From Eledone cirrhosa (lineage: Eukaryota), in assembly GCA_964016885.1 (NCBI GenBank), contig OZ024742.1, positions 110,856,001-110,920,000 on the forward strand: a stretch of 64,000 bases of DNA, given 5' to 3'. Below are positions 9,986 to 63,995 of this stretch, in pieces. Each line of letters opens with the position of its first letter. Within the stretch, counting starts at the first letter, position 1. The notes below the pieces were generated by a model. The model made no database searches, was not told the DNA's origin, and worked only from the letters and a program-made list of their open reading frames with translations. The position numbers were made by a program, and so were the translations under genes.

Positions 9986-10241
9986 CCTGTCTACTGAGAT
10001 TACTGAATTTGTCACTACTCTAAAACAATAGCATACGGTCTTCAAAATGCTTTTAATGCATAAAGTGTATTGCAAAATACATTATATATACATCCATATA
10101 TATATTGCTATTTCAGAGGTCCAATTCTAATTTTTAATTTCTGCCTGACCAACAATCGCTCTGTATAATCAGTTCCTGATTATTTACTAGAATTCTATAA
10201 GAATATAACATTAGTAATCTCAGTAGACAGGAGGGGTAGTT

Positions 10242-10286
10242 AGCCTTGATAAGCTTCAACAAAAGCGAAACAAGGCCTTGTCGGCT
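10242..10286 (+). ncRNA. Hammerhead ribozyme with U3:A8 core (TTGATAA)
   Basis: AGCC TTGATAA GCTT-CAACAA-AAGC GAAA CAAGGCCTTGTC GGCT. GUC triplet with cleavage after C10282. Stem I is extended by AATCTCAG/CTGAGATT. Confidence 0.85.
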
Positions 10287-10561
10287 TATCTCCCCTGTTT
10301 GCTGAGATTAAAGTAAGTGAATTTGTTACTACTCTAAAACAATAGCATACGGTCTTCAAAATGCTTTTAATTAAGCGTAAAGTGTATTGCGAAATACATT
10401 ATATATATACATCCATATATATATTGCTATTTCAGAGCTCCAATTCTAATTTTTTAATTTCTGCCTGACCAACAATCGCTCTGTATAATCAGTTCCTGAT
10501 TATTTACTAGAATTCTATAAGAATATAACATCAGTAATCTCAGTATACAGGAGGGGTAGTT

Positions 10562-10606
10562 AGCCTTGATAAGCTTCAACAAAAGCGAAACAAGGCCTTG
10601 TCGGCT
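10562..10606 (+). ncRNA. Second identical U3:A8 hammerhead
   Basis: Exact copy 320 bp downstream. Confidence 0.85.
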
Positions 10607-10730
10607 TATCTCCCCTGTTTGCTGAGATTAAAGTAAGTGAATTTGTCACTACTCTAAAATAATAGCATACGGTCTTCAAAATGCTTTTAATTAAGCATAA
10701 AGTGTATTGCAAAATACATTATATATACAT

Positions 10731-10777
<47 letters not shown>

Positions 10778-13348: not shown

Positions 13349-13382
<34 letters not shown>

Positions 13383-13498
13383 GACATAGAATATTCGAAA
13401 ATATTCTGTATGTTTATAATAAACATTTTGAAGACCTAATCGCTATAGAATAGAATACGTCACGTATTACAATTAGATTCTCGATAAAAGCAAGGGAA

Positions 13499-13541
13499 GT
13501 AATCTACGCGTTTCATTCTTGTTAGAATTCATCAGGACTAC
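13499..13541 (-). ncRNA. Type I hammerhead ribozyme (310-nt unit, inverted copy)
   Basis: Reverse complement of 13725-13767. Confidence 0.88.
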
Positions 13542-13724
13542 ATATCCAGTGCTTTTATCGAGAATGACACAGCTAGAGACTTATAGAATACTTAGCTGTG
13601 TACAGGAACTGGTTTGAAAGAGCGGTTGCCGGTCCGGCAGAAATTAGAAATTGGAATAAATGCTCTGAAATAGCGATATATATGTGAATATAGACATAGA
13701 ATATTCGAAAAAAGCACTGGATAT

Positions 13725-13767
13725 GTAGTCCTGATGAATTCTAACAAGAATGAAACGCGTAGATTAC
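13725..13767 (+). ncRNA. Type I hammerhead ribozyme (310-nt unit)
   Basis: GTAGTC CTGATGA ATTCT-AACA-AGAAT GAAA CGCGTA GATTAC. Palindromic stem III ACGCGT is typical of minimal PLE/retrozyme HHRs. Cleavage predicted after A13761. Confidence 0.9.
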
Positions 13768-14034
13768 TTCCCTTGCTTTTATCGAGAATCTAATTGTAAT
13801 ACGTGACGTATTCTATTCTATAGCGATTAGGTCTTCAAAATGTTTATTATAAACATACAGAATATTTTCGAATATTCTATGTCTATATTCACATATATAT
13901 CGCTATTTCAGAGCATTTATTCCAATTTCTAATTTCTGCCGGACCGGCAACCGCTCTTTCAAACCAGTTCCTGTACACAGCTAAGTATTCTATAAGTCTC
14001 TAGCTGTGTCATTCTCGATAAAAGCACTGGATAT

Positions 14035-14077
14035 GTAGTCCTGATGAATTCTAACAAGAATGAAACGCGTAGATTAC
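14035..14077 (+). ncRNA. Type I hammerhead ribozyme (310-nt unit, second tandem copy)
   Basis: Identical motif, closed by a perfect 16-bp ATTCTCGATAAAAGCA/TGCTTTTATCGAGAAT extension. Confidence 0.9.
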
Positions 14078-14259
14078 TTCCCTTGCTTTTATCGAGAATC
14101 TAATTGTAATACGTGACGTATTCTATTCTATAGCGATTAGGTCTTCAAAATGTTTATTATAAACATACAGAATATTTTCGAATATTCTATGTCTATATTC
14201 ACATATATATCGCTATTTCAGAGCATTTATTCCAATTTCATATATATATATATTTATAT

Positions 14260-14560: not shown

Positions 14561-14586
14561 AAACGACCAAATGTTATCTCGACCAG

Positions 14587-14782
14587 GGGGAGATTAATAA
14601 TAATAAAGTATATATACCTACACGCAAAATACATATAGGGACACATGTATTATCCAACCATATGCCAATGTGGTTCTATGGCAGGTTAATAAATTACACA
14701 TTGCCATATGGTTGGATAATACATGTGTCCCTATATGTATTTTGCGTGTAGGGATATATACTTTATTATTGTTAATCTCCCC
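14587..14782. repeat. Inverted repeat (about 85-bp arms) at the 5' junction of the Naiad ORF
   Basis: GGGGAGATTAA...CAATGTG pairs with CACATTG...TTAATCTCCCC, with few mismatches. Confidence 0.85.
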
Positions 14783-14865
14783 ATGACAGATATTGCGACA
14801 ACCAAGACTTCGGCACCAAGGAGAGATTCGGATTTATTACCTACAAATCTCCGCCCCTGAACCCC

Positions 14866-16794
14866 TTGCTCGCACCCTTCGAGAATGACCTCTTCCAACT
14901 GGTCAAGAACATTAAATTTAAACCCAGACACAACCGATTCCTACAAAAACTCCGTAGCAACTTAACAGAGTATGATAACACAAATGACATCATGGTGCAT
15001 TCGGATAAAACTGGGAACCTATACTTTGTCAACCCTGACAGATACCACACACTGATCAGGAGCAGCCTAAACTCCACCTATAAAAAGGCCAACCACTCTT
15101 GCATCGAGGACATAAATCGAGATGGACAACAAATCACCTCCAGCCTCGGGGTCGCCGACCGCACGGAACCTCTAGACCCACGGACACCATACTTCACACT
15201 GAAGGACCATAAATCCGATTTTGACCGTAAACCCTCTATCAGGCTTATTAACCCAACGAAGTCCGACATAGGGAGAATCAGCAAAAAAATCCTAGACCGC
15301 GTGATACCAAAAGTCAAGCAACACACCCGACTTAGCCTATGGATCAACACCCAGGAAGTAATCTCCTGGTTCAGCAATATGGAGGATAAACGAGAAACTA
15401 AATTCATACAGTTCGACATAGAGAGCTACTATGCTTCAATCACCTTACCGCTACTTACTGCCGCCTTGGACTTCGCCGAAACACTCGTGCCCATCACCGA
15501 CCAGGAAAGAAAAATCATCCTCCACGCCAGGAAGACAGTCTTACTCTTTGACGACTCTAAATGGATAAAAAGAGCTCCCGACTCACCCTTCGACGTCAGC
15601 ATGGGCGCCACGGATTCGGCGGAGGTCACTGATCTTATAGGATTATTCCTAATAGCCAAACTCACTGATATGTTTCCTGCATTCGGTGGTGGATTGTACC
15701 GTGATGATGGGCTCCTTACCCTTAAAGGGTACAACCCCAGTAGTACAGATCGGGTCCGGAAACAATTAATCAGATTCTTCCGCGACTGGGGATTTAAAAT
15801 AACCCTACAAACGTCCCTGACCCGAGTAAACTTCCTGGACGTAACCCTCGACCTCGAAAACGACCTGTACTACCCATACAGGAAACCTAATAACAATCTG
15901 CACTACATCCACCGCCGATCAAACAATCCTAGGAACATCACAAACAACCTGGTCAAAAACATCTCCCTCCGCATATCCCGTTTGTCAGCTAATGAGCGGA
16001 TATTCGATGAACATGCGCCTTATTACAACCAGGCCCTCAAGCGGAGTGGTTTCCGGGAGGAAATATCCTACTGTCCAGCTCCCATTAGCGGAACCAGCAG
16101 GAGACACCGCCGCTCACGCAATGTAACATGGTTCAATCCTCCCCACAACGCAGAGGTGACTACTCCCATCGGGAAACTATTCTTTAGGCTCATTGAAAAA
16201 CACTTTCCATTACAACACCGCTACCACAACATAATTAACAAAAATACCATCAAACTCTCTTACAGCACTACACCAAACTTCGCACAAAACATCGTCTCCT
16301 CTAACAACAAAAAACTCAACCCCGATGGCAGAAATAACCTAAATAGCAGTGGAGAACCGACCAGGAGGTGTAACTGCCCGGATAGATCTATTTGCCCACT
16401 CGACAATAGATGCAGAGACCGTAATGTGATCTACCAGTGCAACGTGAGGACGGATACTTCCAACAAAGCCTATATAGGACTTACCGCATGTGACTTCAAG
16501 ACCCGGCTATACCAACATAGACATACCTTCCGAAACCCGGCCCGGCGTCACGCCACTACACTTTCGGGCCACATATGGGACCTCAAGGACAACAACATCA
16601 CCTATGATCTCACTTGGAGATTACTGTCCAGAGCCAATTCTTACACGGGAGGACGCCGTCCGTGCAATTTATGCTCGGAGGAAACTTTACAAATGCTGTT
16701 TTCGACGGACCAACTCCTAAACAAGAAAGATGAACTGGTTACTGCATGTAAACATAGATTGCGTAGGACTTACCTCGCCCTCAAACCCCTATAA
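14866..16794 (+). CDS. PLE polyprotein: reverse transcriptase plus CxC-x5-C-x5-C linker plus GIY-YIG endonuclease
   Basis: Motifs TLKDHK, RLINP, QFDIESYY, FDVSMGA, GLYRDDGL, VNFLDV, WFNPP, CNCPDRSICPLDNRC, VIY..YIG..FKTRLYQH, CNLCSEE, ACKH. The frame stays open upstream to about 14780 (ERFGFITYKSPP) with no ATG, so the ORF is 5'-truncated. Confidence 0.93.
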   Translation: MLAPFENDLFQLVKNIKFKPRHNRFLQKLRSNLTEYDNTNDIMVHSDKTGNLYFVNPDRYHTLIRSSLNSTYKKANHSCIEDINRDGQQITSSLGVADRTEPLDPRTPYFTLKDHKSDFDRKPSIRLINPTKSDIGRISKKILDRVIPKVKQHTRLSLWINTQEVISWFSNMEDKRETKFIQFDIESYYASITLPLLTAALDFAETLVPITDQERKIILHARKTVLLFDDSKWIKRAPDSPFDVSMGATDSAEVTDLIGLFLIAKLTDMFPAFGGGLYRDDGLLTLKGYNPSSTDRVRKQLIRFFRDWGFKITLQTSLTRVNFLDVTLDLENDLYYPYRKPNNNLHYIHRRSNNPRNITNNLVKNISLRISRLSANERIFDEHAPYYNQALKRSGFREEISYCPAPISGTSRRHRRSRNVTWFNPPHNAEVTTPIGKLFFRLIEKHFPLQHRYHNIINKNTIKLSYSTTPNFAQNIVSSNNKKLNPDGRNNLNSSGEPTRRCNCPDRSICPLDNRCRDRNVIYQCNVRTDTSNKAYIGLTACDFKTRLYQHRHTFRNPARRHATTLSGHIWDLKDNNITYDLTWRLLSRANSYTGGRRPCNLCSEETLQMLFSTDQLLNKKDELVTACKHRLRRTYLALKPL

Positions 16795-17920
16795 TGACCC
16801 GGGGGGGGGGGGGTAGACTAGGGCTATAACACCCCACTTGCCGATTTTGCAATGGGTAACCCCTGCTTGCCAAGGAAGACGTAAGATCTTCTTTGTATTC
16901 TTTTATCGCTTCCTTTAATTCCTTCCCCCCTCTCTCCTTTGTCCTTCTACCCCAGCTCTTCTCCTTTGTCGGCGTCTTTTCTCGCCCACCCGAGGCTGCC
17001 CTTTGGCCCCATGTAGCCTTAGTACCCCCCCCCTCCCCTAGTCTATGATAGATTTGGCGGACTCCGCCCTTTATAGCAGTTGGCTTAGACCCCGGATACT
17101 TGCCCCCTTTTTTCCGACCGCTCCCACTATTCTCTGTGCCCTCTATATTTCTTAGTGGCACTTATGCCTTATTTTTTCGTTTCAGTATTTCTTGCTTCGC
17201 TTTTCTTCTGGGCGGGGTGGATTCTGAATTTATTTCTCCGTATTCTACCTTTATTTCGTACGAACTTTCATGTAGCTTGTTTTAGATCTTTTAGAGTTAG
17301 CATTAGTATATATTTTTCTCGGGACTCAGAATTATTATCTCGTACAAGTTCACTTTGCTGCACTGGGTCGTTGCTGGCCCGGGATGGAAACCTTTATTGT
17401 TTATTTCGTGGTAGTCTCTTTAGTATTTTGGCCCCTTTTGTTGACCCGTCACCGTATCATTTACGTACTTATACCTCTTAAAAGGGTCCTTGCCTTATCC
17501 GTCCCACCTAGTTCTTTTACTTATTTCCTTATTTATTTATTTATTTATTTATTTACTTCTTTCTTTCTTTCTTTATTTTATTCTCGCCTAACAATAGCCT
17601 GACACCTAGGTCGTAGAATTTAATTTACTTTACTTTTTTCTTTACACTTATTTGCTTTTCTTCACTCTCAGTATTTTTTCTTTCCTATTTCTACCCCCCA
17701 TTGTTCTACCTACCGTTCCGACTTCCTCCCCCTCCCCCTCCCCTGTATCTTCTTTGACCTCATGCCCAGCTGTAGCTGGCACTACCAACGCTTGATTGGG
17801 TCTACTCCACCCCCTCCCCTCTTTCTCCTACTGGCAGGTTTAGCCACCATCTCCCCTACTAATTTGCAACCACAGAATTACTACTGATTTTTGACAATCA
17901 CTTTGACCATATATGGAATT

Positions 17921-18014
17921 ACCCCTTGAGAAGATCGGCTATTTAAATACCAGGATAAATTTTCATTTAGTCCAGAATTAGCCGTCGAAACGGCTTGAGC
18001 TCAGCTGTCGGGGT
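17921..18014 (+). ncRNA. Hammerhead ribozyme with U3:A8 core (TTGAGAA) in the PLE 3' end
   Basis: Stem I ACCCC/GGGGT, core TTGAGAA 17926-17932, stem II GA(T)CGGCTA/TAGCCGTC with a large loop, GAAA 17987-17990, stem III ACGGCT/AGCTGT, GUC triplet with cleavage after C18009. Confidence 0.85.
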
Positions 18015-18106
18015 CTTACTGGTTCCTATTACCCACTCTACTACCTCAAGTATTGAGTACTTTGGTGCGTTATGGTCCACCTGGTTCCTTACCACATTTC
18101 CTTCGT

Positions 18107-18161
<55 letters not shown>

Positions 18162-28727: not shown

Positions 28728-28771
<44 letters not shown>

Positions 28772-28774
<3 letters not shown>

Positions 28775-28877
28775 CGAAGGAAATGTGGTAAGGAACCAGG
28801 TGGACCATAACGCACCAAAGTACTCGATACTTAGGGTAGTAGAGTGGGTAATAGGAACGAGTAGGACCTACTCGTTC
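28772..28877 (-). mobile_element. Solo about 97-nt copy of the Naiad 3' terminus in (TA)n, with a micro 5' inversion
   Basis: Reverse complement of about 18012-18107 with about 5 differences. 28856-28877 is a small palindrome. Confidence 0.9.
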
Positions 28878-28878
28878 A

Positions 28879-28899
<21 letters not shown>

Positions 28900-28910
<11 letters not shown>

Positions 28911-60579: not shown

Positions 60580-62460
60580 TTACTGAAGTGCTTTTGGATA
60601 CACAATGTTTTTTGTTTTTCCTTCTGGTGCGTACACAAATAAATCAGAAGGTTTACCGACGCGTGAGCAAGCCACACACAGCTGTCCATGTGAGAAGCAT
60701 GGATTTTCTAAATTTAGTCCACACACTTGTAGCGATTGTCCTTGTGCTTTGTTGATAGTCATTGCAAAGGCGAGTCGCACCGGAAACTGCAAACGTTTGA
60801 ATTCGAATGGCGTATCTGTCGGAATCATTGGGATGCGTGGCAACAGTACACCTTCTGCTTTTAATTTTCCATTTAAAATTGTAGCTTCGATGATATTGTT
60901 CATCATCTTTTTCACTGAAAGCCTGGTACCGTTGCAAAGTTGTGGTGGATTGATGTTTCGGAGAAGGATGATAGGCACGCCAATTTTCAATGTTAAAATG
61001 TGCGGTGGCATGCCTGGCAAATCAAGTGAATTCAAGAATTCAGTTGGATAATTGATAATTTCGTCTTGATTCATTACAGTATCGATGGACTTATACGTTG
61101 TCGCTTCGCCTGGTATTTTGTTTTGAATGCTGAAATAAATGGCATTGACATCGTCGTTTTTGGCTGCTCATATAGCACGTGCATTGAGCCACTGATGATT
61201 TTTGTAATGCTGCGCGATATTTGGGAAAACTTTGTGAATCAGTTCGTCTCTGGTTGCCGTGATTCTACAGAAGTTTGTTGGCAATGTCATACATTTTGTG
61301 GATTCATCGATTACCATTTTCCCATTCCCAATATCCAGCAATTGTTTTGTGAAACGTTCAGCGGATGCATCATTTTGTAGTTGTACACGCATATTGGTTT
61401 TTAAAGTTAATTTCTGTATGTGTCGCCATAAAACTGATGATTTGAGACATGCATTAAGCTCATCAGCGGGTGTTGATCGCGGTATAACTGGTAGAGTTTG
61501 TCGAAAATCACCAGACAATAAAATGAGTGTGCCACCGAAGAGCTGTTCATTTCCTTTCAAATATTTTAGTGTGTTATTAAGCGCTTCCAATGATTTTTTG
61601 TGCGCCATAGTACATTCGTCCCATATAATGATTTAACATGATTGGAGTACTTTACCTATACCAGAACTTTTGGTGATATTGCATGTTGGTGTCTCAGTGA
61701 TTTGCATATTCAATGGCAATTTCAGTGCTGAATGTGCAGTTCGGCTACCATCCAAAAGAGTTGCCGCAATTCCAGATGATGCGATTGCCAGTGCAATATT
61801 ATTTTGTGATCGTATAGTTGCCAAAATATGTGAAATGAGAAATGTTTTGCCTGTACCACCGGGCGCATCTATAAAATACAATCCGCCGCTTTGATTTGTA
61901 ATTGCCTGCATAATTTTGTCATATACTATGCGTTGTTCTGGTACCAATTTCAGAAGATTCGTTTGAACAAATGTACCCAATTCGGCGACATCAAAGTTTG
62001 TTTCTCGTTGCAAATCACGATCGAAAATGTCGTTTACAGATCGATTCGGCGCAGGTATTCCCAATTGTACCAGTGTTTTGTTAGCGATTGCTAAACATAT
62101 GACCTCAATCGAAACCAATGCTTCATTATACACGATTGGTGTGAATTGAATATTCAGATTTTGATTTGTTGCACGCAAACGATGTAGGATGTCTTCACTC
62201 ATGTAGTCTTTGTATTTTTCCCAAAGATCTTTTGGATTTGATGGGAAGCACGTTGTCAATATTATTGCGAATAACGTGCGTATTTGCTGTGGTCGAGCAG
62301 TATTCGATGCATCAGCGAGTGAAGTGTCCCAATGTCCATCATTTTCAAGAAGATTTAATTTTTGGCAAGCTTCACGATAAGTGGCACATACTTGACCGTT
62401 TACTGTTCTCAATTCTTGGAATGATGTCGGTCCACGTACGTTGATTAACAATAATCGCAA
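60580..62460 (-). pseudogene. Helitron PIF1-family helicase region, with in-frame stops at about 61633 and 61168 and a frameshift near 62490
   Basis: DAPGGTGKT, ASSGIAATLL, IWDECTM, GDFRQTLPV, LCNGTRL and AMTINKAQGQS motifs. Confidence 0.92.
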
Positions 62461-62476
62461 GTAAAAGCATTCTGCA

Positions 62477-63995
62477 TTATTTGGGTGAACAGTACAAACG
62501 GCCTAACGCGTCGGTCGAATATAAATTGGAATGTCCTTCAACTACTTTACCCTGTTTGCGACGTTTAAACTTTTTCGTTGATGTATTCCATGTGTAATAT
62601 GTTGGCACTTCAGAATAAAGTAGTGTCTTTGCAAACACATCTTCACTGCACAATGAGAAAAATTCAGTTAACGTTGTTGGCGGTGGTGTCAATGCCCTTG
62701 CACGTATATTTTCAGTTGTGAAGTATACGCGCTGTCCATTTTCAAGGTGCACCGCCAAATGAACAACTGTTGGATGTTGATAATGGATTGGAAATGAGAA
62801 AATGCGCCGTACTGCTTCATTACTACTAATGTAGCGTACCAGTTGGTATTGGTCGATTTCATCGATAGATGCATTTGCATTGCACACTCCAAAAACTGCC
62901 ATATCGCTTCCTTTGTTGATATATTTGCAAATGTACTTGATCGCTTTCACCGAATTGCAATACTCGACATTGATGTGTGCTTTGAACGTCTTTGAGAGTA
63001 ACGGTAAATATGGTACAACCCAACGATTATCGACTTCAACATAATTGTTTCGTACTTTTAAAGTGATGGATTTGCCGCCATCATCAGTTGCTCGTCGACG
63101 ATAGAGTGGATATCCGTCATTGCCAGTGATAGTCTCGGCAACTAAGTCTCTTGGGTATTGTTTCGTGCATTTCCCATCAGACATGCATGGTGAATTGTTG
63201 TTGAGTAAGCTACATGGACCATGAATCATGTTTTTAGTGACGACTTCAAATAAGTCTGGATCAACGTCGACATCTGGTATTTCTGCAGAGATGATTTGAT
63301 CAATTTGATCTGGTCTGACTTTTTCAATTAACCAAATCAAAATGTGTGCATGTGCCAATCCTCTTTTTTGCCATTCAATGGAAAACATCCAACAGCGTGT
63401 CTCTCCAAAAACATGATGCTTGACAATTAAATCCGTTAAAGATTTCAATTTTTGTTTGAACACACGCGCTGTAATATCATGACGATCCGAAGACGATTGA
63501 CCAGGTAACAAAAGTTCTTTAATTTCATCCCACGTAGGATTGCATGTGAATGTAATAAAAATATTTGGATGGCCATATGCGCGAACATATGTCATTGCAT
63601 CTTGTGCGTATTCATGCATGTGCCGTGGGCTCCCTGTAAATGTAGCGGGCAGTATGACCATTTTTCCCCAATTAATTAGGATTCATATTGCCATCATTAA
63701 CAATGGCATAACGTAAATGAATGTACTCTTCTGAACGTAGTTTGGTTTGATTCAATCGAATGTAGAGGAGTCGTTCAGTTTCGATTTTTGCATACATATC
63801 GACAATGTATTGATGGAACAATTGTCGACATTTCAAAATATGATTTTCACCGTTTTCACGAATCATTAATCTATATGAATAATAATTCATGGCACTGACT
63901 TTCTTATTCGTTTCCTCATCTGTTTGTGGATTTCTCAGTTTGATGTTGAAATGATATCCATCTTCTCCTTGCCAAAATAAAATCGGATATTGCAA
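62477..63995 (-). pseudogene. Helitron Rep (HUH endonuclease) region, interrupted by a stop and frameshift near 63665
   Basis: FITFTCNPTW, EWQKRGLAHAHIL, MIHGPC, DNRWVVPY and KYICKYINKG motifs. Confidence 0.92.

Follow-up and report, generated by a model that had tools for sequence, protein, structure and literature searches.

Could a short insertion in the genome of Eledone cirrhosa be the record of an RNA that was cut by its own ribozyme in vivo? The question is raised by positions 28772..28877 of the window, i.e. the whole stretch of 64,000 nucleotides analysed here, in which the earlier note saw a genomic fossil of cleavage by a U3:A8 hammerhead. Our analysis shows that a Hydra-clade Penelope-like element (PLE) has left many mini-insertions, and that this solo insertion, which is among them, was quite probably made from the 3' RNA piece that the element's hammerhead is predicted to release.

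The solo insertion

The insertion itself is real. Its direct arm (28773..28868, minus strand) corresponds to the last 96 bases of the element, 18012-18107, with 91 of the 96 bases identical and no gaps when the two are compared within the window. Unstranded (TA)n target sequence is found on both sides: 28730..28772 adjoins the element's 3' end (the array itself spans 28730-28773) and 28878..28902 adjoins the inverted arm. The inverted arm (28867..28877, plus strand) equals 18015-18025, is joined to the direct arm through a GG microhomology and stops 2-4 bases short of 18029, the usual outer end in the family. Because the junction GG is common to both arms, the 5' boundary is ambiguous by two bases, and the direct arm begins either at 18012, as was first proposed, or at 18014. 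The cap, a 23-base palindrome at 28855-28877, can be read as 10-bp arms around 3 bases or as 11-bp arms around 1 base.

The insertion carries the CC haplotype at 18016/18021, and therefore its donor is not the long copy in the window. It was thought to be a single example, but the same junction gave 124 matches genome-wide, most loci being matched twice. Among 100 matches listed we counted 58 distinct loci by eye, and we estimate ~60-70 loci in all. Nearly all of these loci come from one subfamily, the one offering the GG/CC microhomology, so microhomology alone shapes this class of junctions.

The parent element

The parent ORF (14783..16794, plus strand, in an open frame of 14776-16794) is 5'-truncated, and its translation has a reverse transcriptase (RT) first and GIY-YIG endonuclease motifs last. 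The motifs are DKT at residue 77, YRDD at 308, CxCx5C at 532, VIY/YIG at 551/566, CxxC..E at 630 and CxH at 658. Full-length copies encode an extra N-terminus with an RWR motif; the full N-terminus is short and, by eye, has no GIY-YIG motif. A Pfam search of the ORF gave no match. The Hydra clade is described in PMC8557442 (our statements on cited papers refer to the accessible parts of their text) as having a C-terminal GIY-YIG, DKT and RWK motifs, a CxCx5C linker, and CxxC and CxH around E/N. The parent ORF has the GIY-YIG at its C-terminus, judged by the order of motifs with no profile match, and it has the DKT, to which the full-length copies add RWR for RWK. It also has the CxCx5C linker with no Cx2-5CxxC finger, and CxxC and CxH around E and N, and copies of the element are inserted in (TA)n. 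We assign the parent element to the Hydra clade of PLEs on these motifs rather than on an RT tree.

The earlier note had called the element a Naiad, a label that the order of RT and GIY-YIG and the Hydra-clade motifs do not allow. Naiads have the nuclease before the RT and a DKA motif (PMC8557442). In the parent ORF the RT (YRDD at 308) precedes the GIY-YIG (VIY/YIG at 551/566), and DKT is found instead of the Naiad hallmark, DKA in place of DKG. Naiads also have no hammerhead in canonical order, whereas the parent has a type I hammerhead in normal order. A non-LTR retrozyme was considered as well and rejected: the solo class has no ribozyme 5' half and is palindromic rather than built of tandem whole-hammerhead units.

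The ORF is followed by the 3' non-coding region and pseudo-LTR (16795..18109, plus strand). Genome copies were located by exact sequence patterns. A 25-base piece from the element's 3' end is present in exact form 22,699 times in the 3.0 Gb genome, and a 24-base piece near the ORF start 284 times, some of these in tandem arrays. The head-to-tail arrays of 2-4 full-length units, e.g. L133-L136 (G000:C1:91474839-91488489), have a period of ~3.53-3.55 kb, which gives the length of the parent unit. In tandem copies the unit continues past 18109 into a 90-base leader and then the start codon, and therefore the apparent end at 18107-18109 is an internal site. At 17 loci the pseudo-LTR stands directly before the ORF; it begins at 17972 in one (L123), at 18009-18010 in another (L146) and farther upstream in the others. 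These start positions require more-than-unit templates, circles or jumps, which speaks against a simple picture.

Some other features of the window were observed. The long element is truncated at ~14783, where it abuts a 200-base imperfect palindrome (14584-14785) that has no match to the rest of the element. Another repeat of ~310-320 bases is found inverted and in tandem beside TA-rich sequence at 13366-14239 and 10004-10742, an arrangement that is the typical layout of this class of element. On the minus strand, 60580-63682 contains broken ORF pieces whose translations resemble what we take to be a Helitron Rep/PIF1 helicase.

The predicted hammerhead

Folding predicts a type I hammerhead at 17921..18014 (plus strand). 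It consists of stem I (17921-25/18010-14), the core UUGAGAA with U3:A8 (17926-32), stem II with a 37-base loop (17933-41/17979-86), GAAA (17987-90) and a near-palindromic stem III of 5 bp (17991-95/18003-07). Thus the three stems, the 3-8 pair, a free position 7, GAAA and UH of a type I hammerhead are all present. By standard numbering on this fold the predicted scissile bond is C18009/G18010. The minimum-free-energy fold of 17921-18014 has all three stems, stem I being open. The stretch is no more stable than shuffled sequences (z -0.46), and an Rfam search of it, at the gathering threshold and at E 10, matched no model. Across 31 whole copies A8 is fixed (31/31), position 7 is G, T or C, and position 3 is U in 22 and C, a mismatch with A8, in the remaining 9. 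Self-cleavage at C18009/G18010 is predicted from sequence, and the genomic ends and scars described below coincide with the predicted bond.

The C3/A8 mismatch subfamily includes L008, L128, L052 and L308. Its haplotype occurs in 19 of 71 cut-type arms versus 24 of 87 unselected arms, and its deficit within the palindrome pattern set is confounded by stem III microhomology. Diverged relatives (L412:276-408 and L020:1727-1862) keep the core and change both stem II strands, by eye. An RNA starting at 17969 can form a tetraloop hairpin (17979-17994) between the 3' strand of stem II and the 5' strand of stem III; this hairpin excludes the ribozyme fold and is a possible off state.

5' ends of the genomic copies

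We mapped the 5' ends in an unselected sample of 132 stretches, covering 93 of the first 100 places listed for one 3'-end search and 42 of the first 100 for another, with 139 terminus copies having enough flank. Of the 139 direct arms, 86 begin at 17965-17983. Upstream of this zone, 9 begin before the core and 2 at 17926-17964; downstream of it, 12 begin at 17984-18009, 3 at 18010-18012 and 27 farther on. The main peak is therefore 30-45 bases upstream of the scissile bond. The peak at 18010-18012 that the earlier note had proposed to look for does exist, but it is a minor one; a first unselected pass over 129 copies resembled a refutation, and the minor peak emerged in enriched searches. By extrapolation, cut-type copies make up about 2% of the family, i.e. 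some hundreds of copies.

The main zone of 5' ends is the same in both arms (17965..17976, plus strand). The ends of exact runs are concentrated in 17965-17975 and are most frequent at 17970; overlap with the other arm explains several of those at 17965-17968. An extra untemplated G precedes A17969 in 10 of the 12 arms ending there, some of which may be microhomology; such a G is what a cap would leave. The sequence around A17969 resembles what we take to be an initiator. These features make A17969, inside loop II of the ribozyme, a rather likely transcription start as far as sequence can suggest one. An internal promoter without a TATA box is described for the Drosophila Penelope (PMC2377424). 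When contigs from four public runs were aligned to 17850-18110, two of the runs showed a depth step at ~17958-17975, which we did not count as evidence because contigs cannot show ends and the runs are possibly the genome's own source. Two other causes were considered for the peak at 17965-17983. Three AG sites lie there and the ends are not just after them, as a splice acceptor would have it, and a stall at RNA structure was rejected, the sequence just upstream being A/T-rich and weakly paired.

Copies truncated near the bond were collected with variable-gap patterns designed around that site. The single-arm pattern gave 757 matches, with 97 loci recovered by script among the first 100 listed, and the palindrome pattern gave 780, with 101 loci by script among the first 100 listed, one locus being counted twice. 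Among the matches listed, 60 were single-arm copies without a short inverted arm; 17 of these start at 18010, 4 at 18011, 1 at 18009 and none at 18008. Were the starts spread evenly over 21 positions, an excess like that at 18010 would have p 2e-9. The last copied base in these listed copies is G18010, with a cliff at 18009.

The 101 palindromes listed behave in a related way. Their junctions overlap through microhomology in 68, whose position is not assignable, and ~45 of the 101 are joined inside the near-palindromic stem III; a CG centre, the same as a blunt join between arms that both end at 18010 would give, is found in 10 of these 68. Of the 33 blunt or insert-bearing junctions among the listed palindromes, 24 have an inverted arm that ends at 18010, 25 a direct arm that does so and 20 both, and the inserts are short and mostly A/T. 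We rejected CpG decay as the source of these A/T inserts, TCG being kept in 257 of 266 arms spanning the bond. Four further enriched searches showed the same pattern by eye. When 117 mini-palindromes from several enriched searches were pooled, which makes a biased set, 47 had the end of their deeper arm at 18009-18010, 18 had it at 18011-18014 and 10 at 18004-18008. The same two-arm G-run junction, with a 2-base insert, was seen by eye in an older diverged subfamily (G000:C1:424657392-424657449).

Scars at the predicted bond

The predicted scissile bond (18009..18010, plus strand) has untemplated scars in addition to the minor base-sharp peak of 5' ends. A whole-genome pattern found 27 matches with inserts between C18009 and G18010. 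Long scars of 5-30 untemplated, mostly A/T bases are carried by 15 loci (one of them matched twice), and the other inserts are one tandem duplication and ten of 1-2 bases. On the sense strand many of the scars are rich in A, which is expected of RNA tails. The ribozyme core is present in 14 of the 15 long-scar copies (13 by script, one by eye), compared with 9 of 109 unselected copies spanning the bond (Fisher p 1e-11). The short inserts, 9 of the 10 in copies starting at 17965-17975, resemble background. When the same pattern design was moved 2 bases upstream of the bond as a control, it yielded 3 matches, without an A/T-rich insert among them; a second control at 18036/18037 yielded 22, which were either single bases or local duplications. 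One palindromic copy (L478:1400-1620) has an identical 5-base scar in both arms, and therefore the scar was already in the template at that locus. The simplest reading of the scars is that the bond was cut in the RNA, that a tail was sometimes added to the 5' product, and that a template jump or ligation brought the two products together again.

An alternative hypothesis would be that nothing is cut, and that the base of stem III, or the end of the G-run, makes the reverse transcriptase stall and drop off or add bases, which would mimic a cleavage site. C18009 is directly 3' of stem III and hence a plausible pause site, the ribozyme activity is a prediction, and metazoan PLE hammerheads are described as cutting poorly in vitro (PMC4209133). 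But a pause would act on every RNA that has stem III. RNAs starting at 17969 also hold stem III and form most of the spanning copies, and the long scars, with 14 of 15, need the 5' half of the ribozyme, which argues against a pause. The cliff at 18009 with G18010 copied last, and the tail-like A-richness of many scars on the sense strand, speak against it too, and we regard a stall as very improbable. Because the base-sharp 5' ends and the scars both fall on C18009/G18010, it is very likely, on this genomic evidence, that the U3:A8 hammerhead cuts in vivo in the parent family.

The inverted arms

An adjacent inverted arm was found in 75 of the 129 copies of the first unselected pass, and 68 of the 75 start at 18029 next to (TA)n. 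This outer end would mark a second priming site (TAT, 18027..18029, plus strand), the first one (TAT, 18107..18109, plus strand) being the 3' end of the direct arms; the 80 bases of 18030-18109 form the PLE "tail". Arms as long as 700-1000 bases run past other TA-rich sites and still have their outer end at 18029 (or 18109). The inner ends of the inverted arms peak in the same zone as those of the direct arms, 17965-17983. Palindrome centres of 0-1 base are common, and at L013, L015 and L019 the inverted arm extends 35-160 bases farther upstream than the direct arm. The subfamily haplotype is common to both arms in 49 of 54 copies, which together with the shared end site points to one RNA templating both.

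It had been proposed that a single cDNA of the cleavage product was copied to its end and snapped back, leaving the 10-bp inversion. The solo geometry permits the 3-base loop that this needs, and the agreement of haplotypes between the arms is what a copy of the first cDNA would show. However, snap-back does not give an outer end fixed at a second priming site, not least for the 700-1000-base arms, fully matched arms with centres of 0-1 base cannot prime a fold-back, and an inverted arm that reaches farther than the direct arm has no place in it. Snap-back is thus quite unlikely. Since it does not account for fixed outer ends, centres of 0-1 base and farther-reaching inverted arms, we favour two-strand priming as the maker of the inverted cap, with high confidence.

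Origin of the solo insertion

Our best explanation is as follows. Most of the element's RNA would start at ~A17969 in loop II and would carry half a ribozyme at its 5' side and a whole one at its 3' side. At a (TA)n target the element protein would nick the two strands and prime reverse transcription at the two fixed TAT sites, 18107-09 and 18027-29, of the same RNA. Both cDNAs would extend to the 5' end of the RNA and be joined head to head, through untemplated bases or microhomology, which gives the inverted cap. In ~2% of copies the RNA 5' end would be G18010, made by the ribozyme. Copying may sometimes proceed beyond G18010 onto the 5' cleavage product, either because the enzyme jumps templates or because the junction has been ligated, and would leave an A/T-rich scar where that product had been tailed. 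For the solo insertion, a few bases would have been lost from each arm before the join through the common GG.

The solo insertion is located in the downstream shoulder of the 18010 peak, 2-4 bases 3' of the peak, and its direct arm is likely a cDNA of the 3' cleavage product trimmed by these 2-4 bases. From its sequence we consider it probable that it derived from cut RNA. Taken on its own, it fits the cleavage model without proving cleavage; the notion of a genomic fossil stands for the family, with its sharp ends and scars, and is weaker for this one insertion, which misses the peak by 2-4 bases. Several points weigh against our explanation. The cleavage site is only a minor peak of 3 in 139 unselected copies, and the solo insertion begins at 18012 or 18014, not 18010. 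Microhomology can strip 25-30 bases from both arms, as in the stem III joins (~45 of the 101 palindromes listed). The solo haplotype goes with the mismatched C3/A8 core in 6 of 9 whole ribozymes, which slightly lowers the odds of an origin from cut RNA. The enriched patterns were designed around the site and cover the first 100 listed of 757 and 780 matches, and one of the 22 matches at the 18036/18037 control is A-rich, though locally duplicated. In the anole element insertion did not require cleavage, and in the accessible text on it no RNA reads begin or end at the site (PMC11167929).

It could also be that the family's ribozyme cuts while the solo insertion came from uncut RNA with its 5' end at ~17969, each arm having lost ~40 bases when its end was trimmed or when the palindrome centre was later deleted through the GG/CC microhomology. 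Uncut-type copies outnumber cut-type ones by ~30 to 1 (86 versus 3 of the 139), deep microhomology joins exist in the stem III class, and the solo junction recurs at 58 loci or more, with few exceptions within the subfamily where this microhomology is available; the haplotype of the solo insertion is linked to a C3/A8 core. Yet the deep joins use 4-8 or more shared bases, and the solo join only 2. The 117 pooled mini-palindromes, a biased set, show a shoulder downstream of 18010 as trimming of cut RNA predicts. The solo haplotype is also present in short, cut-type copies (7 of 46), and two scarred copies (L470 and L477) have the C3/A8 core. An origin from uncut RNA is thus unlikely, though less so than snap-back or a stall, and trimmed cut RNA remains our preferred origin.

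In a wider reading, the genome would keep a base-exact record of hammerhead cutting in a PLE, with the cut products copied into DNA, with tailed 5' products joined back to 3' products before reverse transcription or in its course, and with a promoter in the loop that leaves only the downstream ribozyme whole. We give this reading slightly less than an even chance. If it is true, cutting and rejoining at the bond would be a route to the more-than-unit and tandem copies of the element, and a count of ends and scars would be a sequence-only activity test for any retroelement ribozyme.

Comparison with known systems

The parent element shares with the Hydra-clade PLEs (PMC8557442) the C-terminal GIY-YIG, DKT, an RWK-like motif, CxCx5C, CxxC and CxH, as well as (TA)n targets, a pseudo-LTR hammerhead, inverted 5'-truncated copies and a tail. 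It differs in that its unit is ~3.54 kb, those of the paper being generally <3 kb, its tail has 80 bases instead of 30-40, its core is U3:A8 and not canonical, and it has >22,000 copies. A term search of the supplement of Craig et al. 2021 (PMC8557442), as far as accessible, did not find the parent family, and the accessible text of that paper calls the hammerhead function unclear and contains no mapping of 5' ends to the cleavage site that we could find.

The protein of PAc, a Poseidon element of the green anole, nicks and extends both target strands in vitro (Frangieh et al. 2024, PMC11167929). Two internal reverse-transcription start sites define the tail of PAc, its hammerhead cleavage is dispensable for insertion in vitro, and the accessible text reports that none of the RNA reads had either end at the hammerhead site. 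Both systems have two nicked and extended strands, two internal starts and uncut RNA as the main template. Cleavage in PAc is described only in vitro with protein, whereas here genomic copies begin or are scarred at the site.

The U3-A8 variant of the hammerhead was described in the Schistosoma Cercyon PLE (Cervera and de la Pena 2014, PMC4209133). That paper proposes that cutting, circles and more-than-unit copying lead to tandem copies, and it states that in vivo evidence for PLE hammerhead cutting is absent. The metazoan PLE hammerheads described there and the one here have in common the type I topology, a long stem II, a palindromic loop 3 and the U3-A8 covariation; the 5-bp stem III and the 37-base loop II holding the main RNA 5' end are particular to the latter. 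Non-LTR retrozymes, cut by type I hammerheads and closed by RtcB, are also short non-coding derivatives of PLE ends (PMC7229834; bioRxiv 10.64898/2026.07.22.740005). The short copies here differ from them in having no ribozyme 5' half and in being palindromic, not tandem, and they look like dead-end products of the parent RNA.

Within the literature covered, most subscription papers lying outside it, we found no report of genomic PLE copies that start or are scarred at the hammerhead bond (accessible parts of PMC7229834, PMC4918200 and bioRxiv 10.64898/2026.07.22.740005 included). In vivo cutting of PLE hammerheads and its purpose are open questions in the accessible texts of PMC4209133, PMC8557442 and PMC11167929. 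The genomic ends and scars bear on the proposed origin of tandem copies and pseudo-LTRs by circles or template jumps. The end-and-scar test needs a genome assembly alone, and is applicable to other families, including hammerheads of untested activity.

In R2 elements, cutting by an HDV-like ribozyme determines where both the RNA and the inserted copies begin. The likeness is that a ribozyme cut can be read from genomic 5' junctions and that template jumps occur at RNA ends; the ribozyme and the class of element are different, and the cut gives the normal 5' end in R2 but a minor one here. The element and its ribozyme belong to known kinds, and the new part is the evidence of in vivo cutting and rejoining.
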